64,000 nt of DNA from Hadesarchaea archaeon (GTDB lineage Archaea > Hadarchaeota > Hadarchaeia > Hadarchaeales > Hadarchaeaceae), in contig JAPDJH010000009.1 in assembly GCA_029259175.1 (NCBI GenBank), positions 57,610-121,609 of the forward strand, written 5' to 3'. The position numbers and the translations under genes were made by a program. The notes beneath the pieces are model-generated. The model was not told the origin of the DNA, did no database searches, and saw only the letters and a list, made by a program, of their open reading frames with translations. Positions 2,437 to 63,092 of this stretch are shown here, piece after piece; positions within the stretch are counted from its first letter, which is position 1; every line of letters begins with the position of its first letter.

Positions 2437-2460
2437 AAAAAGGGAAAACTCTGGCCGGGG

Positions 2461-10262: not shown

Positions 10263-10389
10263 GCCGGGGTAGCTCAGATGGTTAGAGCGCCAGACTCATA
10301 GCCTCGAAGCGCGGCTGTGAGTGCTGATCCCGCGAGATGATGGGTGAGAAATCTGGAGGTCGCGGGTTCGAGTCCCGCCCCCGGCACCA
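10263..10389 (+). tRNA. tRNA-Met(CAT), elongator type, with 50-nt intron (10301-10350) at 37/38; CCA encoded
   Basis: Acceptor GCCGGGG/CCCCGGC, anticodon stem CCAGA/TCTGG, TTCGAGT T-loop; BHB motif: CTCA(10295-98)/TGAG(10345-48) with TAG and AAA bulges. Confidence 0.95.
10301..10350 (+). ncRNA. Putative intron-encoded box C'/D' methylation guide targeting C34 of its own pre-tRNA
   Basis: GGCTGTGAGT (10313-22) complementary to ACTCATAGCC (10294-303, one G-U); CTGA at 10324-27; ATGATGG at 10337-43; the fifth nt upstream of CTGA pairs with C34. Confidence 0.65.
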
Positions 10390-12317: not shown

Positions 12318-12392
12318 GCCGCCGTAGCTGAGCCTGGTTACAGCGGCCGCCTTGTAAGCGGCAGATCGTGGGTTCAAATCCCACCGGCGGCT
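12318..12392 (+). tRNA. tRNA-Thr(TGT)
   Basis: GCCGCCG/CGGCGGC acceptor, GCCGC-CT-TGT-AA-GCGGC anticodon arm, GTGGG-TTCAAAT-CCCAC T arm; full CCA not encoded. Confidence 0.95.
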
Positions 12393-12394
12393 CA

Positions 12395-12625
12395 TTACAA
12401 CTTCTCCAACAGCTCAAAGAACCTCTCTCGGGTAAGCTCCGCCTCCCGGATTATCGCCCGCACGAGCGCTGGCTTGATCTCCCTATCCGGATGGACCGGG
12501 ATAACGGTACGCACGTTCTCTTTCATCAGGATAACGTGGGGACCCTTCCTCCTAACAATTCGAAATCCTTCATGGATCAATATCTTGATGAGCTTCTCAG
12601 CTGGAACAGGCCCGATTTTAGGCAT
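12395..12625 (-). CDS. hicA: HicA-family toxin
   Basis: LIKIL...GF...RRKGPHVIL...VIPVH..EI....I. Confidence 0.9.
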   Translation of the reverse strand: MPKIGPVPAEKLIKILIHEGFRIVRRKGPHVILMKENVRTVIPVHPDREIKPALVRAIIREAELTRERFFELLEKL

Positions 12626-12872
12626 GAACCTCTACTTTTTGTAATCCAACAACTGACTGCGCCATTTTGAGAACTTCTGATTTCTCCTCTTCATCAAGGG
12701 TTTCCAAGTAGAGTTCGATTGCCTCCTCAACATTTTTCATCAACTCTTCGAGCGTTTCGCCTTGCGTGTGGCACCCTGGCAGGGAAGGAACAAACGCCAC
12801 GTAACCGCCCGTCTCATCCTTTTGAACCACTACATCGAACATCAATCTCTTGGCCATGTCTTTCCCAACCAC
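12618..12872 (-). CDS. hicB: HicB-family antitoxin (short)
   Basis: GGYVAFVPSLPGCHTQGETLEELMKNVEEAIELYLE. Confidence 0.92.
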   Translation of the reverse strand: MVGKDMAKRLMFDVVVQKDETGGYVAFVPSLPGCHTQGETLEELMKNVEEAIELYLETLDEEEKSEVLKMAQSVVGLQKVEVHA

Positions 12873-12959
12873 TCTATGTAAACCAGAGTATAAAATCTAT
12901 GGGAAGTTCCAGCACGAGCAATCGTCCGTGTTTGACAAGCAGTAGGGAATAGACAAGAG

Positions 12960-13003
12960 GAATCTCTGTCCTTCCTCTTTCATTAAGACCACCGGCGGCT
13001 CCA
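12960..13003 (+). repeat. att-like repeat R1 (conserved arm + tRNA-Thr 3' end)
   Basis: GAATCTCTGTCCTTCCTCTTTCATTAAGA-CCACCGGCGGCTCCA. Confidence 0.9.
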
Positions 13004-13026
13004 CGAACACAGTAAATTATTTAAAT

Positions 13027-13046
13027 TTTGAAACAATTGTTTTAAA
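13027..13046. promoter_or_regulatory. Palindromic operator overlapping the promoter of the MNT-HEPN pair
   Basis: TTTG-AAACAATTGTTT-TAAA (perfect 12-bp core) directly before the ATG. Confidence 0.55.
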
Positions 13047-13047
13047 T

Positions 13048-13596
13048 ATGAAACATCTAGACGAAAAGGCTTTGAAGGTGCTCACCTACTTCTTTGAGAA
13101 CCCGCGAGAAGAAGTTTACCTGCGGGAACTGGCACGCCGGCTACGGATGAGCCCAGCAACTGTTATGCGAGCCCTACGTCTCCTCATTAGAGAAGGCTTG
13201 ATAACCAAGCGCCCGGAGAAGCACGCCACCTATTTCAAGGCCAACCTTAACCCATACTTCAGAGAGTTGAAGAAAGCGCATACGGTTTCCAAAGTCTTGC
13301 GCTCCGGAATTCTTGAACTCATCAACGAGAAATCGGTAGGTCTAAGTTCAATACTGCTCTACGGGAGCGCCGCTAAAGGCGAAGACGATCGGGGAAGCGA
13401 CTACGACTTTCTGGTGATTGCCGCAAGATGCGCCCTGAGAAGCAGTGAACTCTCGAAACTTCTAGGGAGAGAGGCCACCCTACAGGTCTTCGACGTGGCG
13501 GGCTGGAAACGAGTAGCAAAGCGAAACCGAGCATTCTACCTAGACGTTATAAGCAATTCCATTGTCCTTTATGGTGGAAAGCCGGTGATCGATTGA
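13048..13596 (+). CDS. wHTH + minimal nucleotidyltransferase (MNT) antitoxin
   Basis: YLRELARRLRMSPATV HTH; LYGSAAKGEDDRGSDYDFLV. Confidence 0.88.
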   Translation: MKHLDEKALKVLTYFFENPREEVYLRELARRLRMSPATVMRALRLLIREGLITKRPEKHATYFKANLNPYFRELKKAHTVSKVLRSGILELINEKSVGLSSILLYGSAAKGEDDRGSDYDFLVIAARCALRSSELSKLLGREATLQVFDVAGWKRVAKRNRAFYLDVISNSIVLYGGKPVID

Positions 13597-14033
13597 CGCT
13601 TAGGGATTGTCTTGCGCAAAGGAAGTTGCGCAGGATACGGCCGGATCCGCTCAAAGCCCGCAAATCGCTGGAAGCTGCGTCTGCAAAACTGAAAAAGGCC
13701 AAGGAACTCCTCGCCGATGAGCATTACGATGCAACCCTTCTGTACGCGTACACGAGCATGTTCAGCTCGGGAAGAGCTCTCCTTTACAAGGACGGCATCC
13801 AAGAGAAATCCCACTACTGTTTGGCTAGGTATCTAGAGGAGAGGTACGTGAAGAGAGGAAAGTTGAATCCAAAGATCATCACCTTCCTCGACTCTTTCCG
13901 TGAGGAGCGGCACGCGATAATGTATGGGTTCGAGGAGGTTGAAATCCGGCGCGAAGAGGCTGAGGAAGCCATCTCGGTTGCGGAAGAATTCCTTGGGAGA
14001 GCTAAAGAACTCGTGGGTAAGCGTACGCGCTGA
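13593..14033 (+). CDS. HEPN-domain protein (toxin)
   Basis: AY.SMF...RALL, KSH, REERHAIMYG; overlaps the MNT stop codon. Confidence 0.85.
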   Translation: MTLRDCLAQRKLRRIRPDPLKARKSLEAASAKLKKAKELLADEHYDATLLYAYTSMFSSGRALLYKDGIQEKSHYCLARYLEERYVKRGKLNPKIITFLDSFREERHAIMYGFEEVEIRREEAEEAISVAEEFLGRAKELVGKRTR

Positions 14034-14080
14034 ATGAAGAAGCTTGCTATTGCTTATCGTCTTTGGTTCTCTGCCGTGGT

Positions 14081-14123
14081 TTCTGTCCTTATACTTTTGA
14101 TAGGAAGCCCACTAGTGGCTCCA
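14081..14123 (+). repeat. att-like repeat R2 (degenerate)
   Basis: TTCTGTCCTTATACTTTTGATAGGAAG-CCCACTAGTGGCTCCA vs tRNA CCCACCGGCGGCTC. Confidence 0.75.
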
Positions 14124-14145
14124 CTATATTTTTTAATAAATAGTT

Positions 14146-14166
14146 AACTTAATATATAGTTAAGTT
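14146..14166. promoter_or_regulatory. Inverted-repeat operator upstream of cassette 3
   Basis: AACTTAA-TATATAG-TTAAGTT. Confidence 0.5.
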
Positions 14167-14186
14167 TTAGGAATAACGGTGTTGAG

Positions 14187-15104
14187 ATGTGGCCTGCTGA
14201 ATGGCTAGCAGAGAAATACTTTGAGATCAAAGAGCTGCCGCGAATAGTCGATCGAAACATGGTTGCAAAAATTTGGAAAACTAACAAAAACTACGCGAGT
14301 GTCACCTTGCACGAGATGCGCGAAGCTTTACTTATAGACAGATTGAAGAGAGGAGCATATCTATCGGTACCGCCTGAGAAATGGCTGCCGGTGCACTCGT
14401 TCCTGATGCGAACTCCAGAAATCGCTCCAGCTCTATCTAAACTATTACAGGACTCGATGAACGATATTGAGTGTCTGGTGCTCTATGGCTCGCGGATTTG
14501 GGGGGGAGATGAGCTAAGCGACTGGGATTTCTTCACCGTTGTTTCCTCCGAAAAGTCGAAGAATGCGATGAGGACCAAACTCCTCAAAATCAGGCAAACA
14601 AATCTTCGACTTGATGTGGAGATATTGTCTGTTCAAGACTTCGAGTTTCTCCTACGCAAAGACCCGATTTTTCTCAAACTCGTAGCGTGCGAGTGCAGGC
14701 CCATAGTAGATACTGGTATTCTTGGAATTGCCAAGGCAATCGAGATTAAACCAGAACACGTTGCCGTTGAAATGTTGGCCGCGAAAGAAAATATTCTACA
14801 GGGCATGGCATGCGCGCGACGAGGCGAAAGCAGTATCGCCTGCTACTGGCTCACCCGCGGGATCCGGCGAACGCTTGCTGCGGCCCTCTCCATGTGTGAA
14901 AACTTCTCCGGGAAAGCTTTGGAAGAGGAATTCAAAGCACGTTTTCCTCAGTATGAGCAACTTCGGGTGATCGTTAAAAAAATTGGCTTGGAACGAGAAA
15001 CACATATACCAAAAAAATTCCTTAGAGAACTTGTTAACAGAACAATAGTCGAGTGGGAACTGGTAGCAAAGGAGTTGCGCAGATGGGGAAAAAGCGCAAA
15101 ATAA
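14187..15104 (+). CDS. wHTH + nucleotidyltransferase + helical (HEPN-like) fusion
   Basis: LH.MRE..LI.RLKRG.Y wHTH; VLYGSRIWGGDELSDWDF MNT; helical C-terminus. Confidence 0.7.
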   Translation: MWPAEWLAEKYFEIKELPRIVDRNMVAKIWKTNKNYASVTLHEMREALLIDRLKRGAYLSVPPEKWLPVHSFLMRTPEIAPALSKLLQDSMNDIECLVLYGSRIWGGDELSDWDFFTVVSSEKSKNAMRTKLLKIRQTNLRLDVEILSVQDFEFLLRKDPIFLKLVACECRPIVDTGILGIAKAIEIKPEHVAVEMLAAKENILQGMACARRGESSIACYWLTRGIRRTLAAALSMCENFSGKALEEEFKARFPQYEQLRVIVKKIGLERETHIPKKFLRELVNRTIVEWELVAKELRRWGKSAK

Positions 15105-15340
15105 AGAAACCAGCAGCGCTTCTGGCACAAAGAAAAGCACACTTGCAACTTGCAGAGGAATTTTCCAAACTCGTACCAACTGAAGTAATTAAACATTGGG
15201 AAAAAGAGGCCGAGCGCTTCGAACGCGAAGCTAGACGGCTTATGACAGGGTTACCCACGAGCTACCTAGAAGAAATAGAAAAGATAAGTGATGAAGAAGC
15301 GAAAAAGCTCTTACGAAGGAAGCGAAAAGAGATAATCTAG
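15083..15340 (+). CDS. Small basic helical hypothetical protein (partner of the 14187 gene)
   Basis: ATG after GGAG; MGKKRKIKK...; overlaps upstream gene end; ends just before R3. Confidence 0.6.
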   Translation: MGKKRKIKKPAALLAQRKAHLQLAEEFSKLVPTEVIKHWEKEAERFEREARRLMTGLPTSYLEEIEKISDEEAKKLLRRKRKEII

Positions 15341-15353
15341 ACATTCGCGTAGC

Positions 15354-15400
15354 GAATCTTCTGTCCTTTACTTTCATTAAGGATCCCACCGGCGGCTCCA
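15354..15400 (+). repeat. att-like repeat R3 (conserved arm + tRNA-Thr 3' end)
   Basis: GAATCTTCTGTCCTTTACTTTCATTAAGG-ATCCCACCGGCGGCTCCA; 16 nt (15383-98) identical to 12378-93. Confidence 0.92.
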
Positions 15401-15417
15401 CAAAAAATAGTTTATAG

Positions 15418-15432
15418 GTAAGGATTTCTTAC
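15418..15432. promoter_or_regulatory. Inverted-repeat operator for the AbrB antitoxin
   Basis: GTAAG-GATTT-CTTAC immediately downstream of a TTTATA box. Confidence 0.5.
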
Positions 15433-15448
15433 ATTAATTAGTGATGGG

Positions 15449-15700
15449 ATGAAAGGAAGCGTGGTAAAAATTACCTCAAAAGGACAACTTACCCTCCCCG
15501 TGGAAATCCGGAGAGAGTTAGGGGTTAGGAAAGACGATTATCTTTACGTCACAAGAGCTGGTGAGCTAATTCTGATGAAGCGGATCGGAGTGAATCCTAA
15601 GGAAATTTTAGATACCTTTCAGCAAGTCGCAAAGGAGAGCGGGCTGACGAGAAAAGAACTAAACCGGGTCATCCGCGAGATCAGGCGGGCAAAAGAATGA
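15449..15700 (+). CDS. AbrB/MazE/SpoVT-family antitoxin (VapB-like)
   Basis: VKITSKGQLTLPVEIRRELGV. Confidence 0.92.
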   Translation: MKGSVVKITSKGQLTLPVEIRRELGVRKDDYLYVTRAGELILMKRIGVNPKEILDTFQQVAKESGLTRKELNRVIREIRRAKE

Positions 15701-16119
15701 ATAAAAAGCCAAGAGTTTTCTTGGACACGAACGTTTTGATATCGGGAATGGTATTCAGAGGAAACGAGAGGAAACTGCTGGACGCGATTATTGATAACCG
15801 ATTGAAACTGGTAATAAGCGACGATGTTTTGAACGAAACAGAAATGGTCTTCAGGAAAAAATTCCCGCAGCACCGTGTTCTTTTCCCGTTATTTTTGCAG
15901 CTCGTGAAGCACGAAAGAATACCGAGAAAAGCGTATAGAAAAGCCGAAAAGACATATTCTGGACTCCTCCGTGACAAAACAGACGCCCACATCCTTGCGG
16001 CCGCTGTCGTGGGCAAGTGCGATTATCTAATTGCCGGCGACAAAGAACTCCTTTCCCTGAAGAAAGTTGGTCTCACAAAAATAATTCAAACGTGGGAGTT
16101 GCTGAGAGAATTGAAATAA
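15697..16119 (+). CDS. PIN-domain toxin (VapC-like)
   Basis: VFLDTNVLISG, E, DKTDAHILAAA, LIAGDKELL. Confidence 0.92.
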   Translation: MNKKPRVFLDTNVLISGMVFRGNERKLLDAIIDNRLKLVISDDVLNETEMVFRKKFPQHRVLFPLFLQLVKHERIPRKAYRKAEKTYSGLLRDKTDAHILAAAVVGKCDYLIAGDKELLSLKKVGLTKIIQTWELLRELK

Positions 16120-16178
16120 ACGTGTGCTCTGTCTCCTCGCGCTTCAGCAAAAACTAAAAACCACACCACCCATCAGAA

Positions 16179-51888: not shown

Positions 51889-52038
51889 ATGACAAAGCGG
51901 AGGACTGGGCAGAAGCGCCCTTCACGAAAACCCAAGGGCAGAAAGAAGAGGCTCCTAGTTGCGGGAGCAGTTGCGGCGGGGGCTGTGGCTGGTGGTTATC
52001 TGATCTACAGGCGGGGGCGGAAACGCAAAAGATTTTAA
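51889..52038 (+). CDS. 49-aa highly basic single-TM microprotein (not in ORF track)
   Basis: TATAAAAA 51860-67, GGTGAG RBS; MTKRRTGQKRPSRKPKGRKKRLLVAGAVAAGAVAGGYLIYRRGRKRKRF. Confidence 0.7.
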   Translation: MTKRRTGQKRPSRKPKGRKKRLLVAGAVAAGAVAGGYLIYRRGRKRKRF

Positions 52039-52063: not shown

Positions 52064-52140
52064 GCCGGGGTGGCAGAGCGGCTAATGCGGCGGACTGCAG
52101 ATCCGCTTTTTCGCCGGTTCAAATCCGGCCCCCGGCTCCA
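52064..52140 (+). tRNA. tRNA-Cys(GCA), CCA encoded
   Basis: GCCGGGG/CCCCGGC, GCGGA-CT-GCA-GA-TCCGC, GCCGG-TTCAAAT-CCGGC, U73. Confidence 0.95.
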
Positions 52141-52174
52141 ATGACCACAACAAGACGATAGATAACGCGACCAC

Positions 52175-52507
52175 CTATCCACCAAGCATCTTAGATATTT
52201 TCTCCTTCAGCTTAGGGACATCTTCTTTCACGATCTTCCAGACGTTTGCGTAGTCGACTCCGAAATACTTATGCACGAGTACGTTTCTAAGCCCAGCAAT
52301 GTGCTTCCATGGAACTTCACTGTGTCTGTCTTTTACGTGCTCCGGCACATTCTTTGCGGCCTCTCCGATGATTTCGAGGCTTCTCACAATTGCCCTTTTC
52401 AGCGTTTCGTCCTTCACGAAATCTTCGAAACTTTTTGCCTTCAATGCGTTTTCGATATATTCACATTCATCCAGCATGTGCTTCAAGAAGGGCTTGTAAT
52501 CCTTCAC
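52175..52507 (-). CDS. HEPN/DUF86 toxin (HepT-like)
   Basis: AIVRSLEIIGEAAK, PW..IAGLRNVLVH.YFGVD. Confidence 0.93.
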   Translation of the reverse strand: MKDYKPFLKHMLDECEYIENALKAKSFEDFVKDETLKRAIVRSLEIIGEAAKNVPEHVKDRHSEVPWKHIAGLRNVLVHKYFGVDYANVWKIVKEDVPKLKEKISKMLGG

Positions 52508-52821
52508 GCGAACACCACTTCCCGCTCCACGTAAGGCTTTATGTAAGGGCTTATCGCGCCGACCGAGACCAAGTCGACTTTTCTCCCCAGCTTCCGCTCG
52601 AGAAATTCCATCAAGTCGAAAAACTTGAGCCCTATGGGTTCGGAAAATTCGACGAGGATGTCCACATCGCTCTTTCCCGTCTGCTTCCCCCTGACGATCG
52701 ATCCGAAAACCCCTATCCTCGCGACCTTGTACTCCCGCGCCAAGATTGGCTCCAGTTCTTTCAAAGTTTTAATCACCGCCTCGAGCTCGGGATTTCGTTC
52801 CACCATTTCAAACACCCACAT
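52504..52821 (-). CDS. Minimal nucleotidyltransferase antitoxin (MntA-like)
   Basis: IGVFGSIVRG.Q...SDVDILVEF, LGRKVDLV; start may be ATG 52806. Confidence 0.93.
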   Translation of the reverse strand: MWVFEMVERNPELEAVIKTLKELEPILAREYKVARIGVFGSIVRGKQTGKSDVDILVEFSEPIGLKFFDLMEFLERKLGRKVDLVSVGAISPYIKPYVEREVVFA

Positions 52822-52899
52822 TCAGTTGGAGCCGCCCGTTATTAATTGTTCAAGATTGGGATTTCTCGTTGGTTCGCTCTGCGATTCTGCTTTTCCCCG

Positions 52900-52917
52900 A
52901 ATCCGGCCCCGGCTCCA
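52900..52917 (+). repeat. Direct repeat of tRNA-Cys 3' end (attR-like)
   Basis: AATCCGGCCCCGGCTCCA vs tRNA AATCCGGCCCCCGGCTCCA (1-nt deletion). Confidence 0.9.
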
Positions 52918-53031
52918 AACACGCTGGTTTCATTTTCCTTTCTTGAAGCCACAATGTTCCGATTTAACAAATTCAGCTTAAAATGGTCTCAGAACAAAAG
53001 TTTCACGTATGGGGTGAGAAATGGGAGAGAA

Positions 53032-53706
53032 TTGGAACTAATTCTCTGGACAATTTTCATAGCAGGAGTGTTGAAAGCCTACCTGCTACCAGCGATAGCG
53101 TTGGTAACAGGAATAGGGTTCATTCACATTCCCGACTGGATAAGCACGCCGGGGATAGGACACGCGATGACCGTCTGTATGGGCATCCTTCCGCTGGTTG
53201 GGATCATAGATTTCTATTCTCGCGGCGGGCGGCTGGAGAGAAGAAAACCGAAGAAGATCCACCTGCTCTTCTTGGTTCTGATGTTTCTTGGAGCCTTGCT
53301 TGCCCCTCTAGAAAGGATTCTGGTAAGGGGCGATGAAGTTTCCCAAGTGCTTTGGACTCTTTCAGACACGCTGCCTTCCGGAATCGCTTTCGGATTGCTC
53401 GTCCCCTTTTATAAACTCGAGAAGGAGAAAAGGCTATTATCCTTTCTGTTCTTCTTTGCGCTCACCTACATTACTGTCCCCGCAGCAGCAACAGTTAAAA
53501 TCTTGAATCCTTCACTCTCCGGTTTTCCAACGTACGAAACGCCCTTTTATCTGGACGCTTGGTTCTGGAGTGACATGATCGTCAACATAGGGGTGGGCGT
53601 CTTCTTGATTTGGAGTATTTTAAATGAGCATCTCCTTAGGAAGAGGACAACCACAAGGGTTCGCCGAGCGGGTGTTGCAGGGTTCGGTAAAGGGCGGAGA
53701 ACTTAG
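53032..53706 (+). CDS. Multi-TM hypothetical membrane protein
   Basis: About 6 hydrophobic segments; C-terminal WFWSD motif shared with 55417-56079; start uncertain (TTG 53032). Confidence 0.65.
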   Translation: MELILWTIFIAGVLKAYLLPAIALVTGIGFIHIPDWISTPGIGHAMTVCMGILPLVGIIDFYSRGGRLERRKPKKIHLLFLVLMFLGALLAPLERILVRGDEVSQVLWTLSDTLPSGIAFGLLVPFYKLEKEKRLLSFLFFFALTYITVPAAATVKILNPSLSGFPTYETPFYLDAWFWSDMIVNIGVGVFLIWSILNEHLLRKRTTTRVRRAGVAGFGKGRRT

Positions 53707-53719
53707 GAGAGGTGCAGAA

Positions 53720-55387
53720 ATGAATCCCGCGCACCAAAGGCTCGTCATGGGTCTCTCGGGCTTCGTGGCTTTTGCCTTGCTAGTACCAGCATGCTTTCAA
53801 GTGGTCGCGTTCTACGCGCTCTCCGAAAACTGCCGATACGACTTTAGTGGCCCACACGACTTCTGGATGGATCCGACGTGGACGGTTGCGAGCGAGAACG
53901 GGAACCCAGTACTCAGAGGAGAAAATGAGGGATTCGCATTTTTTCCAAAGGAAACTCCAAAGGAAAATAAGCGGACGAAAGACCTCCTGCCCACCCCCAC
54001 CGAGCTTGCCGGGCTAGAAGTAAGGATAGAACTCGAGAGAGGATTCACCTGCGTTTCGTGGGTGGGCAGAAACCAAAAGCTCTCCTTAGTTCTTCATCCA
54101 GCCGCGCTGGAGGTGGAGCGGTGGTCTGGCGATGAACTCGTCGAGTGGCACTCCTACCCCGCAGATTTTTCGCTCGGTCGGTGGCACAGCTTGCAGTTGT
54201 CAGTCCGAGACTTGGATTTCTACATAAAACTAGATGACAACCAAACAATAGAGGTAGAAAACGCGTTTTGGGCCCGAAAGGTGAGTTTCGAGGCGTGCCC
54301 CTCCGATGTGGGCACGGTGGTCTTGATAGACAACTTCGAGGTCTGCTTCCATAAGCCCCCGGTTGTTCAATCTCTCCTTGCGGATCTCGCGATCGTCGGG
54401 CGGATGCTTGCCTATATGGGACTTTTCCTCCTGTTAATCTTTGGACTGTTCAAAATCAAGCCAAGATATGGCTTCTGGGCCGCTCTCGCTCTGATCACTG
54501 CCCTGCTCTCCGAGCGCCCGACGCTTTTCTTCAGCAGGCCACTGGATTTGGGCTTTATCCTCGGATACCTCTTCTACTTCTTCTACAGCTTCATAACATA
54601 CGACTTGGTTTGGAGCAGCAACAGAACTGACCTAGGAACTCTTCTGCTCGTCGGAGCTCTCGTAGGGTGTTTCCTAAGCTTCGGCAGGTGGGGCGTGTCG
54701 CCGGGTTTGGTTGCGAGATTCTCCGTTGTCTCGATTACTCTTCCGTTGGTTATGCTCGACTCTTTTACCCCGAATCCCGAAGTGAGGGTTCCTCCCTGGG
54801 CCAACACCTTGCTCGGAGGCCGGCGGTGGCGGTGGACTCTAGCGCTCATTATGCTCGCACTCTTGTACTCGGCATATTGTGCGATAGGTCTGATCGTTTC
54901 TGACCTCTGCTTTCACCTCTCGTTGGTTGTCATGGCCGGAGAACTCATCCTAGTCTATCTGCTGGCCCTGCTCATCATTTCGAAAGGCATGAGCCTGAGG
55001 GAGTTCCTGCCCACTAGGCGTGAGCGAAAAGTCCTCTTCTCGGCTCTAGGAGTGGCTTATCTTTTTTCATCGGCATACCTGTTGCGCACGTCACTGACCG
55101 CATCTGCCTCGCCCTCTGAACTCATGCTCATGAATTTCGGCCCCTTTGTGCTCATGTTTTCCTTGCTACTCGCGTGCACGCGCTCGAGGTTAAGAAAACG
55201 AGTCCGTATGCGCGAAAGACTGAAGCCTCGCTCGCTGCTGGTCTGGCTTCCCTTGCTACTGCTGTTTGCCTCCCTTGTATCGCTCGTTCCTCCCTTGGTG
55301 GTGCTCGTCCCAATCGAGATGTTTTTGGTACAGGTGGGAGGCATCGGGCTAATAGCATGGCTGCTGCTAGACACGCGAAGGCTGTGA
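53720..55387 (+). CDS. Membrane protein with extracellular lectin/DUF1080-like domain and ~12 TM
   Basis: ATG after GAGGTG; YDFS...W...G.WH.L.L.V...IDNFEV beta-sandwich pattern, then hydrophobic region. Confidence 0.6.
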   Translation: MNPAHQRLVMGLSGFVAFALLVPACFQVVAFYALSENCRYDFSGPHDFWMDPTWTVASENGNPVLRGENEGFAFFPKETPKENKRTKDLLPTPTELAGLEVRIELERGFTCVSWVGRNQKLSLVLHPAALEVERWSGDELVEWHSYPADFSLGRWHSLQLSVRDLDFYIKLDDNQTIEVENAFWARKVSFEACPSDVGTVVLIDNFEVCFHKPPVVQSLLADLAIVGRMLAYMGLFLLLIFGLFKIKPRYGFWAALALITALLSERPTLFFSRPLDLGFILGYLFYFFYSFITYDLVWSSNRTDLGTLLLVGALVGCFLSFGRWGVSPGLVARFSVVSITLPLVMLDSFTPNPEVRVPPWANTLLGGRRWRWTLALIMLALLYSAYCAIGLIVSDLCFHLSLVVMAGELILVYLLALLIISKGMSLREFLPTRRERKVLFSALGVAYLFSSAYLLRTSLTASASPSELMLMNFGPFVLMFSLLLACTRSRLRKRVRMRERLKPRSLLVWLPLLLLFASLVSLVPPLVVLVPIEMFLVQVGGIGLIAWLLLDTRRL

Positions 55388-55416
55388 GACGGTTGGATTT
55401 TAAAGTCGGGACAGGG

Positions 55417-56079
55417 ATGGTTCTAGAGAGAATGCGGGGACTCATCAACCGCCTGTTCGCCGCATCCTTCATCCTGATCATTTTGGCGTGGATGGTCCGG
55501 CAGGTTCAGTTTGCGGTTGAGCAAGGATGGGTCCCGCCTGTGCACCCCTCGCTCGTGGCGCTCGTGATGTACGGCACCTTCATGATTGGCTACTCGATCC
55601 TCGTCGTGGGGCTGCTGACTGAGCTGCGAAGACCGACGCTCAGTTTTGCGCTACACCGCAATTGGCGCTGGCTGGCGTGCGGCGCCTTCCTCCTCGGGAT
55701 TTTCGTCCTCATAAACACGGTCCAAGCCATCGAGATGCACGACAGGCCCGAGTTCCTCAAGCAGTGGGTGCTCGACAGCGTGTGCATGGAGTCCAGCTCC
55801 TTTTCCCTGCTGTTCGGCATTCTCTTCATGACCCGCTCGACCCCGCAGCGCTCGCCGGGCTATCGCCTGATGCTGCTGGGAGCCGCACTCTTCGTGCTGA
55901 TCAATCCCTTCCCGGCTTACATCACGAGCGCTCTCGGCTTCTATCTCGGAGGGCCCGAGGAGTACAAACACTTCTGGACCGAGACCGTCCCCACCCTGTG
56001 GTTCTGGTGGGACTTCCTGTCGGAGCTCGTGATCCTCGTTGGTGCGCTTTGGCTGTTGAGGAGAGGAAAGAAAGCCTAA
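55417..56079 (+). CDS. Multi-TM hypothetical membrane protein
   Basis: About 6 TM; EL.RPT...RN and WFWWD motifs. Confidence 0.7.
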   Translation: MVLERMRGLINRLFAASFILIILAWMVRQVQFAVEQGWVPPVHPSLVALVMYGTFMIGYSILVVGLLTELRRPTLSFALHRNWRWLACGAFLLGIFVLINTVQAIEMHDRPEFLKQWVLDSVCMESSSFSLLFGILFMTRSTPQRSPGYRLMLLGAALFVLINPFPAYITSALGFYLGGPEEYKHFWTETVPTLWFWWDFLSELVILVGALWLLRRGKKA

Positions 56080-56118
56080 CCCCCGATGGATTAACCGCCT
56101 TGTCAGCGAGAGGTGTTC

Positions 56119-56274
56119 TCAGCGCTTTTTCCTACGCGAACCCGCGGCCGTCGCGATCAGCCCGCCGATGAGCACTAAGACAATCCACAGCTGTTCTTCC
56201 GTAGCGGCGAACATCGCAATGCCCGCGAGCATTATCAGCAGGCCCACCGCCGCCACAACCGTTAGGGCTTTCAG
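56119..56274 (-). CDS. Small 2-TM protein, probable CTG start
   Basis: GGGGGTGA RBS then in-frame CTG AAA GCC; two hydrophobic segments, basic tail. Confidence 0.55.
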   Translation of the reverse strand: MKALTVVAAVGLLIMLAGIAMFAATEEQLWIVLVLIGGLIATAAGSRRKKR

Positions 56275-56372
56275 ACACTCACCCCCGTTCCTCCTGCGCT
56301 TCGGGAGGCTTAAACTTGGTGGTGGAAAACGCAAGAGACTAAAATCGCGTCTCGGAGTAGAAGAGGGGCTCG

Positions 56373-57152
56373 ATGAAGCGAGTGCTGGTGGCCATCCCCG
56401 CTATCGGAATCTTCGCGCTCGCGGGAGCGGCCGGGCTGATTTACTCAGCTGAGGATCCGCACTGGGGGCTGGGCCTCCAAGTCGTCAGCACGTTTGTTAC
56501 TCTTCTCCTGTGCTCCGCGTACTTTCTCGTGCCCCCAAAGCGTCGGCTCGGGTGGTACCGGACCCTGATGGCTTGGGCGGCCGTGCTGATGTTCAGCTAC
56601 GTGCTATCGACAGTAATTCCTGGAACCACGCCCTACGAGATGGGCACGAGAGACGTGGCAAAGGTTCTTCCATGGTTTTTGGTTCCGGTAGCACTCATCG
56701 TATTTCCCATCTGGCTTATCTTCACCTTGTTCTATCTGATGTTCGCGAGCGAGGCAATACGGCCCACCGCTGGTCTCGATTTGAACCGGAATAAGTTTCT
56801 TTATTCGCTTGCTGTGCTCGGAATTTTGTTCGGCTTTCTGAACGGTCTCCAAGTGTTTCCCGGGGAGTGGGGTCCTCTGGGTCTCAACGAGACTGCCATC
56901 TTGGGAATGGTCTACGGCTTCCTCCTGCTCCTGCGCCCGCCGCAGCGGCTCAACCTGCTGATCGCGATCGTAATGGGATTTTTCCTGCCCGTCTACGTGG
57001 TGGGACCGCCCGGGTTGAACACGGGTTTCCGGCCCGCCTTTCAGTTCCTCTGGGGTGAACCGCTCAACCTCGGGGCGCTCACCGACGTAATGATCACGCT
57101 GGCCTTCTTCCCGGCCTCTGTGTGGCTCCTCAGGCGCAGGAAAAGGCGATGA
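56373..57152 (+). CDS. Multi-TM membrane protein, paralog of the C-terminal half of 61554-63092
   Basis: WYR..W...IPG..PY, E..RP, G.LGLN.T.ILG, LGA.TD.M shared. Confidence 0.75.
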   Translation: MKRVLVAIPAIGIFALAGAAGLIYSAEDPHWGLGLQVVSTFVTLLLCSAYFLVPPKRRLGWYRTLMAWAAVLMFSYVLSTVIPGTTPYEMGTRDVAKVLPWFLVPVALIVFPIWLIFTLFYLMFASEAIRPTAGLDLNRNKFLYSLAVLGILFGFLNGLQVFPGEWGPLGLNETAILGMVYGFLLLLRPPQRLNLLIAIVMGFFLPVYVVGPPGLNTGFRPAFQFLWGEPLNLGALTDVMITLAFFPASVWLLRRRKRR

Positions 57153-57153
57153 G

Positions 57154-59307
57154 ATGAAAGGACTGGAAGGGAAGTATGCGGGATTGAGCATCTCCGGTGG
57201 ACTCCTGATTTTGTTCTTGCTGGTGGTTGTATGGTTGGTAGCATTTTTCCTCCTCAGGCGGCAGATGAGACGAAAAACCCTCCTGATCGCGCTCACCATT
57301 TTCTCTATAACTTTCCTCGGGGCGACGATCGGAGTGCTTTCAAATCCCCTGATCTCTGGCGTTGACGCCCCATACTACCCCTATGCAGTTCGCGAGTTTC
57401 TGCAGGGCAGGCCGCTTCCCGAACCTTACCAGCCGGTGGCTTTTTACACGGCTGCGGCGTTTTCAGTTCTGACCAACGACCTCACGCTTGGGACGAAAAT
57501 CGCTCAGGCTCTATTTTTCCCACTGATGGTGTTGTCGGCTTTTATCCTGATACACTATCTGACAAAAAATGACCGGATTTCGCTCATAGTGACAGCCGTG
57601 TATGCACTCATGAGTTGTGCTTTGTCGGCCAAAGTGGGAATCCTCAAAAACATGGCCGCGATGGCGCTGATGCCTCTCTTCTATCTCTTCTTCATCAAGT
57701 TCATCCGGGGGGAGGGAAAGACACTCGATTTCAAGGTCTTGCGTTTGAACCAGAACTTTATTCTCTCGATTGTGCTCTTCGGCCTTTTGGCGGCAAGTCA
57801 CTTTCTGACCACCGGCTTCGTATTCATAACGGTCGTGGCCCACGTGATGTTTCAGTTGGGATACCATCGAACACTTCCACTTCGGGAGTTGAAGTTCTTG
57901 GGAATCCTCGTTTTGCTCATCTTGGCTGGGATGACTTCGGCTTCTCTCAGAGAGAAAGTCATCGGTACCACGAACGCTTTTGCTGAGAGCCAGCCGGTGC
58001 CGGACAGCCTCTTTCCTTTCACTCTTACAGGAGTGGGGGTTCCCGGAACCGCTTTTCTCCCCTTCATTCTCGTTGGCTTCATTGGGTTTTTCTTGGTACT
58101 CGCGCGCCGTGATAGATCAGTTTATCCGCTGGCCGTTGCCTTGCTCGCAGGGATGGTGTGCGCCCAGCCATGGGTGATAGATCCTGAGTATTCCTTCAGA
58201 TTTGGGGTTCTTACAATGACTGTGATCGTTCCTCTTGTCGCTTTTGGGGCCACTATCATAGCTGGAAGACACAGGAAGCTCTCGATGGGACTCGTCGGTA
58301 CACTGGCTGCTTTTGCAATAGGGATGTTTATAGGACTCGGGCTCATCGCCGGAGCAGTAGGACCGGGATTCCTTTCCGTGGAGAAATGGGAGTTCTCGGC
58401 CGGGCTCAGAGAGCAGCTCCCGAAGAACTGTGTTCTCGTGGCTGGGCACTCGGAGTACTTCTTTGACTTTGAGTACTGGGACGACCTGATTCTCGGCCGG
58501 AATGTCGAGCACCTGTGTTCTGAGGATGAGGCTCCTCTACCGCTGGAAGAGGCGGCAAAGAGGTTGATAGATAAACAGTATGATTTTCAACAAAGATGTT
58601 TGCTTTTAATTCCAATAGAGGTTGTCGAAAATGAAAATTTGGATAAATTTGGTTTGGAGAACACGGGGATTCAGAACTCAAAAACGGCGGTTTTGGAGCT
58701 GAAGAGTTCCATCGCCGCTTTAACGGATCTGGGCGATGAGATACCCATCGACTCCGCGGTGCTGGTGGCATTGCCCGAGCTCGAAAATGAGGAGTGGGCG
58801 TATCAATCGCTGAGAAATCGCGAAGTCGAGCTGGGGAGTCCGATTCCTTGGGAAAACTTGTCAGATGAGCTGGAAATGCGCGAGAACGAGAGAGGAAAGC
58901 TGTGCTTATACCTAACGGAAGCTTGGCGGGCGGAGAACTTGGATGCGGACAACCTCGGGATCGAAGCGGTGGCGGCGAACGAGCTTTATGTCGTTTTCCG
59001 CTTGGAGAACACTCAATATTGGGAAAGCGCTGAGTGGGAAAACCTTCCCATCTGGCCCACCCATGAGGAACCGCGGCGGCTCACGGCTGAAGTCAGGGTC
59101 AACCCAAACCCGCTCTTCGCTTTCATTCTTCTTCCGATCGAACTCTCACAGGTGCTCTACGGGACGCCTGCATATGGGGTCGTGAAGCTCCTGGTAGCAG
59201 TGCCGCTCACGGTCGGGCTGATCGGGCTGCTGCTCCGGCTCTGCGCTGACGGGTGGACACGGTTCTCGAGGAAGACCTCGGGGCGAAAAAGAAAAGGAAA
59301 ACTGTGA
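57154..59307 (+). CDS. GT-C-like multi-TM protein, paralog of 37365-40034
   Basis: GVDAPYY, KN....LMPL, SH.L..G, AQPWV..EY..RF, LLPI....VPLTV. Confidence 0.65.
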   Translation: MKGLEGKYAGLSISGGLLILFLLVVVWLVAFFLLRRQMRRKTLLIALTIFSITFLGATIGVLSNPLISGVDAPYYPYAVREFLQGRPLPEPYQPVAFYTAAAFSVLTNDLTLGTKIAQALFFPLMVLSAFILIHYLTKNDRISLIVTAVYALMSCALSAKVGILKNMAAMALMPLFYLFFIKFIRGEGKTLDFKVLRLNQNFILSIVLFGLLAASHFLTTGFVFITVVAHVMFQLGYHRTLPLRELKFLGILVLLILAGMTSASLREKVIGTTNAFAESQPVPDSLFPFTLTGVGVPGTAFLPFILVGFIGFFLVLARRDRSVYPLAVALLAGMVCAQPWVIDPEYSFRFGVLTMTVIVPLVAFGATIIAGRHRKLSMGLVGTLAAFAIGMFIGLGLIAGAVGPGFLSVEKWEFSAGLREQLPKNCVLVAGHSEYFFDFEYWDDLILGRNVEHLCSEDEAPLPLEEAAKRLIDKQYDFQQRCLLLIPIEVVENENLDKFGLENTGIQNSKTAVLELKSSIAALTDLGDEIPIDSAVLVALPELENEEWAYQSLRNREVELGSPIPWENLSDELEMRENERGKLCLYLTEAWRAENLDADNLGIEAVAANELYVVFRLENTQYWESAEWENLPIWPTHEEPRRLTAEVRVNPNPLFAFILLPIELSQVLYGTPAYGVVKLLVAVPLTVGLIGLLLRLCADGWTRFSRKTSGRKRKGKL

Positions 59308-59484
59308 GCGAATCCAGTTTGCTGGGGCGGGAAGAGATTCTGGGTTGCCCCGATGCTTCCGGTTGTTTTGGCGGCTGGCAACCCCTGTACGAGGATTCTC
59401 TTCTGAGTCTGTCGTGCAAGCTTGTTTTCTGCCTGTGAGGTTTCAACTCTGCAGATTTTATAGAGCGTACGCCGACATTATTTC

Positions 59485-61557
59485 GTGAAAGTCCACGCTG
59501 CTACGCTAACCGTTACGCTCTTGGTGTTCACGCTACCGGTTTGTGCCGCCGAGGATCTGGTGGTCGGGAGCGGGGACACGCTGGTCATAGAGAACGAGAC
59601 GCGCGTGATCGAGGGCAGCATCATCTTGGAACAGGATTCCACCCTGATCATCAGGGACTCGGACATCACGGTCAACAGCCACTACAAGAACCAGTACTGG
59701 GTGCGGGTGGGGTCGGGCGCAACCCTGCTCGTCGAGGGCTCGGTGCTACGCGAGGGCCCCGTCCCGAACTTGCCCGTGCTCGGGTCGTTCGGCGGGATCG
59801 AAAACTTCAGGTTCGGCGAGACAGTCATCGAGCCGGAGGAGGGTGCGCAGGTCGTCCTCAGGAACTCCACTTCAGAACTGCGCATAGGGCCGGGGGAGGG
59901 GAGTTCGGTGGTGCTGGAGTCCTCGTACCTTTCGATCCTCTTCTGGAGGTCGCTCCCCTCGGTGAGCACCACGGTGGAGAACTCGGGCATTCAGATGATA
60001 CACATCTGGCTGAACGGAGAGAACGGGGAAAACGTGGAGCTCGTTGGGCTCCGCGGCGGGGAAGAGCTGGATCTCGATCTCTCGGTTGAGGGGGCGAGTC
60101 TAGCGGTCGAGAACTCTTGGGTGGGAAGGTACTCGGTAGCCCTCTGGATGGGCTATCCGAATGCCGATTGTAGAAAACATGTGGTGATCAAGGATTCGGA
60201 GCTGAGCGAAATCTTTGCCGTTTTTCCAAAGGGCTCCGAAGTCAGGCTCTGGGGGATAGGCCCCGGCTTCTTCGAGAACTGGAACATGCACGACAACATG
60301 GAGGAAAATGGTGTTCCGTGGAGCTTGTGCTTGGAAAACGTTTCGCTGGAGAAATGGAAGCTTGATTTCCACGGGACGGCGGAGATCGAGGACTCGCGCT
60401 TTCATTTGGACACGTGGGACCGGGCTGAGGTCACGGTGAGGCGCTCGACCATCGTCTCCAATCACCACACGCGCGGAGGGCACATCAGGTTCATAGACTC
60501 CGTCGTTTCCGATCGGGAGGACCATCCCACCGGGGTCCGCCTTCTTTACCAACCGTTCACGGAAAACTACGATCCTGTCTACGTGTATGAGTTCGAGAAT
60601 TCTGCGCTTGGCCCCTATGCCGAGTTCGAGTTTACGGATGACAACATTGCGTGCGAGTTCCGCGGAGAGCTCGAGATGCTGGTTCCGCCGGAGCTCATCC
60701 ACTGGTTCGGAGGAACGGTCGGGCGGGAGTTCCCGATCGCGGTTGTGGATGCAAACGGGAAGCCGGTAGCGGGTGCGAAGCTCGAACTCTGCACACAGAA
60801 CAATCAGCTGGTCTGGGAGGGAGAGACGGGCGAGGACGGGAGCACGTCTGTGACCTTGGTGTTCGGAAAGGACAACTATGAGCAGAAGTTCGAGCTGAAG
60901 TGCTGGTTTGAAAATGAGGAACTTCAGACGACGCTCAGTTTCTTCAGCTCCACTCCAATCATCTTGGCGTCAGAGGGCGTCCTAGAGAAGGAGAGTATTA
61001 AGCTGTGGGAGATCACGGCCGCGTTGAGACCAACTATGATTATCCTACCTTTAGTTGCTTTTTTACTTGCTTTGCGTGCTCAACGTAGAAGGAAGCGACC
61101 AGTAGATGTTTTTGGATCATTTCCGGTTTGGATTATGACTACAACATGCTGGTACGCTCCCATTTACGATACGGTAATAGGCCCATTAACTGGTTTGGGA
61201 ATTATGTTTCCGGGCACCTTTGCTCTCTTCATATACCCTCTTGTTACCGTTTTACTAGTAGCATTTTTCTACGGTACAGGATATCTTTGGAAGACAGGAC
61301 AACGAGCGTTAGCGGTGGCATCAGTGATCGCTCTAAATCTATATGTTTCGTTTATTTCTGATTATTCGGCAAACACAACGCTTGACTGGATGGTTCGCCA
61401 CCTCGTGATTGGTTCTGTGTGCTTTCCTCTTCTGTTTCTCGGGGTCATGTGGGCCACTAAGAACTGGAGACGAAGAATCGTGTTGATCCTTTCACTCGTC
61501 GGGATCTTGGTGGTTGGAAACTGTATTTCAGGAGCGGCTTTTGGCAAGGGGGTGTGA
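59485..61557 (+). CDS. Secreted beta-rich domain + carboxypeptidase-regulatory-like domain + C-terminal 6-TM module
   Basis: Signal peptide; VVDANGKPVAGA...G.T..DG; TM module duplicated in the next gene. Confidence 0.7.
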   Translation: MKVHAATLTVTLLVFTLPVCAAEDLVVGSGDTLVIENETRVIEGSIILEQDSTLIIRDSDITVNSHYKNQYWVRVGSGATLLVEGSVLREGPVPNLPVLGSFGGIENFRFGETVIEPEEGAQVVLRNSTSELRIGPGEGSSVVLESSYLSILFWRSLPSVSTTVENSGIQMIHIWLNGENGENVELVGLRGGEELDLDLSVEGASLAVENSWVGRYSVALWMGYPNADCRKHVVIKDSELSEIFAVFPKGSEVRLWGIGPGFFENWNMHDNMEENGVPWSLCLENVSLEKWKLDFHGTAEIEDSRFHLDTWDRAEVTVRRSTIVSNHHTRGGHIRFIDSVVSDREDHPTGVRLLYQPFTENYDPVYVYEFENSALGPYAEFEFTDDNIACEFRGELEMLVPPELIHWFGGTVGREFPIAVVDANGKPVAGAKLELCTQNNQLVWEGETGEDGSTSVTLVFGKDNYEQKFELKCWFENEELQTTLSFFSSTPIILASEGVLEKESIKLWEITAALRPTMIILPLVAFLLALRAQRRRKRPVDVFGSFPVWIMTTTCWYAPIYDTVIGPLTGLGIMFPGTFALFIYPLVTVLLVAFFYGTGYLWKTGQRALAVASVIALNLYVSFISDYSANTTLDWMVRHLVIGSVCFPLLFLGVMWATKNWRRRIVLILSLVGILVVGNCISGAAFGKGV

Positions 61558-63092
61558 GCATCAAGCTGTGGGAGATCACGGCCGCTCTGAAACCGACCGT
61601 GTTTCTTCTGGTTATGGTCATCTTTTTGCTTGCGTTGCGTGCCCAGCGAAGGAGAAAACAAACGCTTGACCTCTTCGGTCCGTGGCCGTTTTGGGTCGTG
61701 GCCGCGACGTACTGGTACGCGCCGATCTACGATACGGTGATCGGACCACTGTCTGGTTTTGGCGTCATGACCCCGGCTGCCCTGCCCTTCTTAGCGTACG
61801 TTGGCTTTGCCTTGATTATGGCGGCGCTCTTCTACGCTGCCGCATATTGGTGGAGAACTGGGCGTCGGGTGCTGGCATTGGCGCTCGTGATTGGGCTGAA
61901 TCTCTACGGCTCGACGGTTTTCGATTACCACGAGGGGGCGACGCTCGGGTTCATGGCGCGCCATCTCGTGAACGGCTCCGTGGGCTTTTCTCTTCTGTTC
62001 CTCGGGATCCTGTGGGCCCGCGAGAGTTGGCGCCGGAGGTACGCGTTGGTTCTCTCACTCATCGGAATATTCGCGATTGGAAACAGTATCACGGGCGCCG
62101 TTCTTCAGACTGGAGAAGCGCTCACGTATGTGGCTCCCTTCTTCGCGATATTGGTCATCCTCGGTGTTCTGATCACTCGCGGACAACACGTTGGAAAGAA
62201 AGTAAAGGGAGGAATAGGTCTCACAAAGGTGAATTGGAAGCTCGTCTTGGCGATCGTTCTCCCAGTTCTCGTATCGGTCGCTTGCGCGTTCGTCATTTAC
62301 AGCCGTGGCGGCGAGTGCGAGGAAAGAGCCAAGTACGCACTACCACTCATGATCACGCTCTACGCGTGTTCCTCGGTCCTCGTTGTCCGGCGGAAGGAGC
62401 TCTGGTATCGGGCGTTCCTGGTGTGGTATCTGGTGGTGATGGGGAGCTTCACGGCGGCGTTTCTCATTCCGGGGATGGAACCCTATGGATACGTGATCGA
62501 AGCAGGGAAGGGGCTTGGCCTCTCCGGGGGTGCGCTCGCGTTGTTCGTAGCAATAAACCCCATGGTGGTTTGGTACTACGGCTACTGCTTGGTTGGGATT
62601 AAGGAACTCCTGAGGCCATCGACGGCTTTAAAGCCAAATCGTGTTAGGGCAGTACACGTGTTGTGTCTGGTGGCAGTAACGGGCGGGACGCTCAACGTGC
62701 TGGCCTCGGCTGGCGGATTCAACGGATGGCTGGGTCTGAACGACACGGTGATTTTGGGAACGATGTGGGGGACGCTCTACTGGTTCCGACCTTGGAAGTG
62801 GTTCACGCGGATCCACTTGGGCCGGTTGCTCCTAAACGTTATTTATGTGTTTCCAGCGATGCTTTCAAGCCAAGCGGGAATCATGATTGGGAGTTTGGGG
62901 GGCTATATGGCCTTAGGAGCGTGGACGGATCTGATGGCGATCAATGGTGTGGCCTCAGCGGGTATTCTGCTGTCGGTGCAGGAGAGAGGGCCACGTTGGA
63001 AAAAGGTGGGGTGGATCGCGGTGCTGTTGCTGATGGTGGGAGCTCCGATTTTGAACATCTTGGCCTACTTGGCTGGTGCGGGACCGTCATGA
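61554..63092 (+). CDS. Two-module polytopic membrane protein
   Basis: N-half matches the C-terminal module of 59485; C-half is homologous to 56373. Confidence 0.75.
   Translation: MSIKLWEITAALKPTVFLLVMVIFLLALRAQRRRKQTLDLFGPWPFWVVAATYWYAPIYDTVIGPLSGFGVMTPAALPFLAYVGFALIMAALFYAAAYWWRTGRRVLALALVIGLNLYGSTVFDYHEGATLGFMARHLVNGSVGFSLLFLGILWARESWRRRYALVLSLIGIFAIGNSITGAVLQTGEALTYVAPFFAILVILGVLITRGQHVGKKVKGGIGLTKVNWKLVLAIVLPVLVSVACAFVIYSRGGECEERAKYALPLMITLYACSSVLVVRRKELWYRAFLVWYLVVMGSFTAAFLIPGMEPYGYVIEAGKGLGLSGGALALFVAINPMVVWYYGYCLVGIKELLRPSTALKPNRVRAVHVLCLVAVTGGTLNVLASAGGFNGWLGLNDTVILGTMWGTLYWFRPWKWFTRIHLGRLLLNVIYVFPAMLSSQAGIMIGSLGGYMALGAWTDLMAINGVASAGILLSVQERGPRWKKVGWIAVLLLMVGAPILNILAYLAGAGPS

Follow-up and report, generated by a model that had tools for sequence, protein, structure and literature searches.

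A toxin-antitoxin operon enclosed by two copies of the tRNA-Cys 3' end in a Hadesarchaea genome: a candidate non-autonomous integrative cassette

The DNA analysed here is a 64,000-nucleotide stretch of the Hadesarchaea archaeon assembly GCA_029259175.1 (contig JAPDJH010000009.1, positions 57,610 to 121,609), hereafter the window, in which the tRNA-Cys gene is followed by a 0.78-kb segment that holds a predicted HepT/MntA toxin-antitoxin (TA) operon and ends in a second copy of the tRNA 3' end. Our results support the view that this segment, the Cys insert, forms a discrete insertion with the tRNA 3' end as its boundary and the TA operon as its sole cargo. As to its origin, we give an even chance to its being a non-autonomous integrative TA cassette, similar to the bacterial cis-mobilizable elements (CIMEs), that site-specific recombination would have placed behind the tRNA gene, at its 3' end.

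An initial annotation of this DNA had described tRNA-Cys as being followed by only a DUF86/MNT gene pair and then an 18-nt repeat of the tRNA's last bases, and each part of that description held when it was examined with ARAGORN and Rfam (the tRNA), Pfam (the genes) and shuffled sequence (the repeat). The size that it gave, 780 bp, agrees with the 777 nt measured from the tRNA end to the repeat end. The repeat (52900-52917, 18 nt) reproduces tRNA positions 52122-52140 without one C of the C-run, and the A that follows it also matches the tRNA-side copy, which extends the agreement to 19 of 20 positions with one gap. Its alignment score of 16.5 was reached in none of 1000 dinucleotide-preserving shuffles of the 2 kb downstream, where the maximum was 13.0. 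The 18-mer occurs once in the 64-kb window, and with up to 3 mismatches allowed, at least one match to it appeared in 5 of 100 whole-window shuffles. The duplication stops exactly one base beyond the tRNA end and no flank is repeated; further copies of the core were found neither inside the insert nor within 2 kb after it, since the best candidates were equalled in 487 and 435 of 500 shuffles, respectively. Between tRNA-Cys and the repeat lie only two genes, both on the minus strand and overlapping by 4 nt, with a spacer of 34 nt on one side of the pair and 93 nt on the other (Table 1). The GC content of the insert is 0.485, compared with 0.532 for the window, which places it in the lowest 9% of 760-nt windows. 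When Rfam was run at E values up to 1 on the insert region and on its relative described below, it returned only the tRNA and a spurious sub-threshold antisense match. Direct repeats of the 3' part of a tRNA gene flank the insert, as they do in tRNA-targeting integrative elements of the tyrosine recombinase type; the integrase gene that such elements carry is absent from it.

The unit recurs at a near-identical tRNA-Cys in a second genome, between unrelated outer flanks, so the idea of a repeated unit was borne out to this extent. Genome contigs were scanned with the Cys core (its extra base being optional), which yielded at least 119 stretches, 80 of them with 2-kb flanks, and all counts of loci given here are among the matches listed. 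Most of the 18-mer matches were bacterial chance matches without a tRNA, and 24 were tRNA loci of archaea, of which 19 bear Hadarchaeota, Hadesarchaea or Hadarchaeum in the title. Twelve of these 24 have at least 1.3 kb of downstream sequence, and the other 12 (632 nt or less) cannot inform on a 780-nt insert. A duplicate of the tRNA tail was present at one of the 12 informative loci, L010 (score 18.5, with 7-10 at the others). TA domains were likewise confined to L010, 13 of 14 loci being without them and carrying housekeeping genes (Pfam, 79 open reading frames [ORFs]). With duplicate and TA cassette at one of 12 loci, the pattern is therefore not general at tRNA-Cys.

L010 is a scaffold of a Hadarchaeota metagenome-assembled genome (MAG), and its tRNA-Cys (Rfam, 59.5 bits) is 98.8% identical to that of the window over 81 nt (blastn). 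Window positions 52161-52918 align with L010 positions 2289-3047 at 83% nucleotide identity, an alignment that takes in the cassette, the arm before the displaced core and the displaced core itself; the homology thus begins within the left spacer, at 52161. The encoded proteins are 91% (MNT) and 84% (HepT) identical at the amino acid level. In the displaced core of L010, at 3028-3048, a T-to-C change stands in place of the missing C. Outside the tRNA and the cassette nothing aligns between the two sequences, either upstream of the tRNA or downstream of the core. Another of the 12 informative loci, L057, shares the L010 upstream and post-core flanks at about 75% identity and is cassette-free, its tRNA running straight into the flank and a helicase gene; judged from this alignment, L057 is an empty site for the L010 lineage. 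When 14 window proteins were compared with the 24 archaeal loci by tblastn, the only matches were to the MNT and HepT of L010, and 46 window proteins had no match in all 119 listed loci.

The two genes of the insert resemble those of type VII TA systems, in which MntA AMPylates HepT, a growth-arresting RNase. The HepT-like protein scored 110.8 bits against a Pfam cut-off of 23.5, and its gene overlaps the MNT stop codon by 4 nt. Its translation shows an R-x4-H-x-Y stretch (R-N-V-L-V-H-K-Y) and that of MNT a G-S-x10-D-x-D stretch; we take R-x4-H(-x-Y) and G-S-x10-D-x-D to be the HepT toxin and the antitoxin motif, respectively. The MNT ORF as called spans 52504-52821, with an upstream ATG at 52821 that is not conserved in L010, and comparison with L010 indicates that the true start is likely at 52806. 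The closest solved structure to MNT is 1wot, a minimal nucleotidyltransferase (E 2.5e-8); a PDB sequence search with HepT gave 0 matches. The NCBIfam models HepT_toxin and MntA_antitoxin gave 49.9 and 46.4 bits, both under the equivalog cut-off of 60, so that the pair is a member of the HepT/MntA family at the Pfam level only. Between the window and L010, dN/dS was 0.11 over the 100 codons of MNT and 0.07 over codons 1-88 of HepT, with synonymous differences (pS) of 0.31 and 0.58, respectively. By this sequence comparison purifying selection acts on each of the two genes (dN/dS about 0.1), and the pair has therefore stayed functional through a long divergence.

The 93-nt arm between the operon and the displaced core is conserved unevenly between the window and L010. 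Its first block would be the promoter of the HepT/MntA operon, its middle serves as an internal neutral reference, and its second block, directly before the core, is a putative recombinase-binding arm (Table 1). The core itself is identical to that of L010 at 15 of 19 ungapped MAFFT columns, or, with a one-base gap put in the C-run by eye, differs by one gap and one substitution in 20 columns. Block 2 and core together thus differ from L010 in 7 of 52 columns with the gap and in 9 of 51 without it, compared with 14 of 19 in the middle block (Fisher p 2e-5), and 22 of 54 positions are identical in the outer flank. At the lowest neutral estimate, the conservation of block 2 and core has a binomial p of 0.003 to 0.02, as computed from these two sequences only. 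A passively decaying relic should not show such conservation. It appears either that selection maintains the distal site, about 50 nt long, or that each lineage integrated later than the cassettes diverged, and on both of these readings, which rest on two sequences, the site would have been in use.

Table 1. Features of the Cys insert and of the tRNA-Thr array, in window coordinates
Feature	Coordinates	Strand	Remarks
tRNA-Cys (GCA), intact, CCA encoded; target gene, attL side	52064..52140	+	ARAGORN + Rfam, 59.5 bits
Proximal copy of 20-nt core, T-loop to CCA + 1 base	52122..52141	+	
Left spacer, 34 nt, tRNA end to HepT stop codon	52141..52174	.	
HepT-like (DUF86/HEPN) RNase toxin gene (predicted), 110 aa	52175..52507	-	Pfam PF01934 E 4e-32
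MntA-like minimal nucleotidyltransferase antitoxin gene (predicted), 100 aa	52504..52806	-	Pfam PF01909 (NTP_transf_2) E 1e-14
Arm block 1: region upstream of operon, AT-rich TATA-like box	52807..52848	-	31/43 columns identical to L010
Exact 10-mer, core of tRNA-Thr repeats R1 and R3, inverted, just upstream of MNT gene	52827..52836	-	
Unconserved arm middle, internal neutral reference	52849..52867	.	5/19 columns identical to L010
Arm block 2: conserved 32 nt directly before displaced core	52868..52899	+	27/32 identical to L010
Displaced tRNA 3'-end copy (attR-side core), one C missing from C-run	52900..52918	+	
tRNA-Thr	12318-12393		
Thr module: HicA/HicB			
Thr module: wHTH-MNT (MNT fused to winged helix-turn-helix domain) + HEPN pair			
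Thr module: 305-aa Polbeta-type nucleotidyltransferase + 95-aa ORF			
Thr module: MazE/PIN			
Separating site R1	~12944-13003		tRNA-Thr tail copy 12989-13003
Separating site R2	~14062-14123		tRNA-Thr tail copy 14108-14123
Separating site R3	~15342-15400		tRNA-Thr tail copy 15385-15400

If the Cys insert is a non-autonomous cassette, DNA with a self-contained HepT/MntA (type VII) operon would have been inserted into tRNA-Cys at its 3' end by site-specific recombination, with the crossover falling within the core, a stretch of about 20 nt extending from the T-loop to the CCA. The incoming copy of the core would now complete the tRNA, and the old tRNA tail would have been pushed 777 nt downstream. 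The likely recombination site would be the distal site, that is, the 32-nt arm together with the core. As the cassette encodes no recombinase, it could move only with the help of an integrase acting in trans from a larger element with the same target, in the way that integrase is supplied to bacterial CIMEs. The TA pair could serve as an addiction module against loss of the insert, with MntA neutralising the HepT RNase. What the data show are the duplication, the TA cargo, the lack of an integrase in the window, the reappearance of the unit in a second genome, one empty-site relative, selection acting on the two genes and the conserved distal site; the kind of recombinase, its provision in trans, mobility today and a role in addiction are what we infer.

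Several observations weigh against the cassette reading. First, no integrase with a Cys target was found among the integrase families sought in the window or by blastn against plasmid and phage collections, although no search was aimed at a matching integrase, and mobilisation in trans is thus purely what we infer. Second, MNT has few close relatives, unlike what is expected of a high-copy mobile element: besides the window's own cluster there are 5 proteins at 82-91% identity, after which identities are 71% or less. Third, the left boundary is not shared between the two genomes, since in L010 tRNA and cassette are separated by 270 nt or more, an N10 scaffold gap among them, so that the unit may be the surviving end of something larger. 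Fourth, the L010 HepT gene (2306-2634, minus strand) shifts frame near codon 88 and its C-terminus continues in another frame, which may be a real inactivation or an assembly error. Fifth, the window's own empty site was not seen, as no listed locus shares its context of deoxyhypusine synthase (DHS), tRNA-Cys and membrane protein. Finally, the conservation of the distal site comes from two sequences only, and a regulatory function could also explain it.

The left side of the L010 cassette was inspected for a decayed second core, and a candidate there fell short of significance, 569 of 1000 shuffles doing as well. The L010 post-tRNA flank is duplicated over about 130 nt, at 2020-2129 and 3048-3304 with 81-84% identity, on either side of the cassette. 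It is possible that the scaffold joins filled and empty alleles and is chimeric, or that the insert in L010 is larger and more complex.

The alternative that survives best, which we regard as tentative and somewhat unlikely, is that the Cys insert is a dead remnant. A larger virus or plasmid would have integrated at tRNA-Cys and decayed by deletion to a segment that can no longer move on its own and perhaps never could; selection against losing the TA pair would have preserved only this operon and the distal att copy. The extra DNA and the gap between tRNA and cassette in L010 are consistent with such a history, as are the scarcity of close MNT homologues and the fact that no integrase was found in the window and no mobiliser is known. 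A precedent also exists in the Sulfolobales, where few-gene remnants at intron-less tRNAs and successive integrations at one tRNA are described (PMC3119797, PMC3718332). However, a relic copy should decay neutrally, whereas block 2 and the core are conserved above both the adjacent spacer and synonymous sites. In addition, neither integrase fragments nor pseudogenes were seen, the minus-strand ORFs that cross the two cores being only 76 and 42 aa long, and random deletion does not readily yield what the window contains, namely five modules at two tRNAs, each of them one operon with short spacers.

Homologous recombination could also have placed the segment, either through foreign DNA with tRNA-Cys and cassette that was anchored on the tRNA and a flank, or through a local segmental duplication, the repeat then being a by-product and not an att site; we consider this distinctly improbable. 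It would account for the recurrence in L010 of about 95 nt and 37 nt of post-tRNA flank after the displaced core (81-84% identity), and for a tRNA that is near-identical (98.8% over 81 nt) in two genomes whose flanks do not align. Against it, the duplication in the window ends at the tRNA end plus one base and repeats no flank, the flank duplication of L010 is associated with the N10 gap of a scaffold that may join two alleles, and the conserved non-tRNA arms of the tRNA-Thr array described below would not arise from tRNA-anchored recombination. That the tail match is an accident with an ordinary chromosomal TA pair in between is scarcely credible, for although the match is short (18-20 nt) with an indel and TA pairs are abundant (2300 relatives of MNT with E <=1e-10), none of the 1000 shuffles reached its score and the displaced core occupies the homologous position in L010.

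A second set of compact TA-type modules lies elsewhere in the window, behind tRNA-Thr (12318-16175). Here four modules are separated by the sites R1, R2 and R3 (Table 1), each of about 48 nt, in which an arm of about 30 nt that is not tRNA sequence precedes 13-16 nt of the tRNA-Thr tail. The arms are mutually related, shuffles being as good in 0 of 2000 cases for R1-R3, 2 of 2000 for R2-R3 and 57 of 2000 for R1-R2. The array is the lowest-GC stretch of the window (0.469) and the sole part under 0.47. It is a stronger case for a cassette array than the Cys insert. A candidate fourth site after the PIN gene (~16121-16165) was rejected, as its likeness to R1-R3 was not significant (78, 395 and 1170 of 2000 shuffles). 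The resident tRNA-Thr has no encoded CCA (12385-12397), reading ...GGCTCA with the HicA stop codon 2 nt on. All three displaced Thr copies end in ...GGCTCCA, so that resident and displaced copies differ by one C, as at tRNA-Cys.

The initial annotation had proposed that one TA-only strategy acts at more than one tRNA and may be a genome-wide system, and had pointed to a pyrimidine-rich stretch before the Cys repeat that loosely resembles the one before R2. The first proposal stands in part. Compact TA modules with copies of the tRNA tail do occur at tRNA-Thr, so that 2 of the 3 tRNAs of the window (Cys and Thr), which are those of this genome that the analysis covered, have a TA-only module bounded by the tRNA's own tail, but the Cys arm is not significantly similar to the Thr arms: in comparisons of 45-nt arms, 937, 324 and 314 of 2000 shuffles matched R1, R2 and R3 as well as the Cys arm did. 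There is thus no evidence of one site family, or of one recombinase, serving both tRNAs. The resemblance of the pyrimidine-rich stretches did not survive comparison with shuffled sequence, which was as good in 586 of 2000 cases for whole spacers and 324 of 2000 for the 45-nt arms, nor with the window itself, where 501 of 18,280 sampled 26-mers match the R2 string at least as well. A further observation is the 10-mer listed in Table 1, which has 4 exact copies in the window against 0.22 expected, a number reached in 0 of 100 shuffles. One of the four copies sits inside a ferredoxin-like gene, and the homologous stretch of L010 matches at 8 of 10 positions. Its presence in the Cys insert may go back to a former place in a Thr-type array or be due to chance.

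The three tRNAs of the window were identified by Rfam, ARAGORN missing the intron-containing one (10263-10386, 124 nt). Neither a cassette nor a tail duplicate was found behind this third tRNA. Introns have been proposed to protect archaeal tRNA genes from integration (PMC3119797, PMC3718332), and the cassette-free state of the intron-containing gene fits that published idea, with n=3 tRNAs.

A bolder interpretation, unlikely in our estimation, is that Hadarchaeota run an integron-like cassette system without an integron at the 3' ends of intron-less tRNA genes. Sub-kilobase TA cassettes of a single operon, each ending in a site of about 50 nt made of an arm and a tRNA tail, would be captured, stacked and exchanged at tRNA entry sites by an integrase encoded elsewhere; the insert at tRNA-Cys would be one such cassette and the four-module array at tRNA-Thr a stack.

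The surroundings of the insert are those of an archaeal chromosome, the window encoding Nre, DHS, PCNA, primase, the intron-containing tRNA and similar features. No integrase, recombinase or transposase family was found by Pfam among 71 window ORFs, nor were any such proteins found when the unassigned ORFs were compared with NCBIfam and PHROGs. Two candidates for a hidden integrase were considered and rejected. A 384-aa unassigned ORF by the intron-containing tRNA reads the antisense strand of a PALP (pyridoxal-phosphate-dependent enzyme) gene (9091-10122), and a split integrase of the SSV type finds no room in the minus-strand ORFs across the two cores, which come to about 45 aa when joined by eye. 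Neither the insert nor the Thr array had a blastn match in plasmid and phage collections.

Some further observations concern the neighbourhood of tRNA-Cys. Between the DHS gene and tRNA-Cys, at 51889-52038, lies a 49-aa, very basic ORF with a hydrophobic middle and without a family match. Downstream of the insert, 52954-63092 holds seven mostly large ORFs (169-717 aa), possibly for membrane or surface proteins, which have no Pfam, NCBIfam or PHROGs family except for one weak match to bMG3 (bacterial alpha-2-macroglobulin MG3 domain). Among the matches listed, tRNA-Cys has several types of context in the phylum, with ThiI/Thi4 upstream or ThiS/ThiF around it, and none has DHS upstream. One Hadesarchaea MAG (L095 and L113) has two tRNA-Cys genes, which lie on separate contigs with different surroundings.

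That elements insert at tRNA genes and leave decayed remnants there is textbook knowledge, and archaeal surveys find integrated elements by way of their integrases, so that integrase-less units under 1 kb are invisible to such surveys. Our literature searches returned no description of TA-only, tRNA-tail-bounded archaeal cassettes among the titles found, which is not proof of absence. If the units are true mobile cassettes, they would explain the spread of TA pairs and their pile-up beside archaeal tRNA genes, and they would indicate that a recombinase acting in trans on very small substrates exists in this phylum, which only metagenomes have revealed. Should they be relics instead, what outlasts the rest of an integrated element would be its TA operon and the att site beside it.

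In integron cassettes, which frequently carry TA genes, each unit pairs one operon with a terminal recombination site, and the units are arrayed next to a fixed entry site. The units described here are alike in that each is a single operon with an end site, arrayed next to an entry site and with TA cargo. Unlike integrons, they are accompanied by no IntI, attI or Pc within the 64 kb, and their core is the tRNA's own tail. None of the five sites folds better than shuffled sequence (DNA folds, z -1.0 to +0.7), in contrast to attC-type hairpins. The missing IntI and attI in the window and the lack of attC-like folds rule out an integron cassette. With type VII systems the gene pair shares the pair of domains, the antitoxin-first order, the 4-nt overlap and both signature motifs; it departs from them in NCBIfam scores below the cut-off and in a HepT without a sequence relative in PDB, its activity being predicted.

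The remnants of viruses and plasmids in Sulfolobales, which integrate by a tyrosine recombinase, resemble the Cys insert in several ways. They likewise target the 3' part of intron-less tRNA genes, leave a duplicated tRNA fragment at the far end and hold few genes, and repeated use of one tRNA gives tandem inserts (PMC3119797, PMC3718332, PMC6563490). The Cys insert differs from these remnants in having no integrase gene or fragment, in a cargo that is one intact and selected TA operon, and in a distal site that is conserved between two genomes. The smallest cryptic element with an integrase is quoted as 2.6 kb, and tandem arrays are reported (PMC6563490); at 0.78 kb, the Cys insert is far below this size.

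Another parallel is with CIMEs, which are defined as elements that have lost or lack the genes for integration and transfer and keep attL and attR, and whose tandem accretion is known from streptococcal islands of integrative and conjugative or mobilizable elements (ICEs and IMEs) (PMC5704250). The Cys insert matches this definition as there given, with both att sites and without integration or transfer genes, and it shares with CIMEs a site at the 3' end of the target gene and the possibility of tandems with other elements (PMC5704250). CIMEs occur in bacteria and can be traced to ICEs or IMEs; for the Cys insert no autonomous relative was found in plasmid or phage collections, and the insert, in contrast, is archaeal, under 1 kb, TA-only and of putative mobilisation. 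Ending in a copy of the tRNA's tail, the mark that site-specific integration leaves, the Cys insert would be a pared-down version of a familiar type of mobile element.

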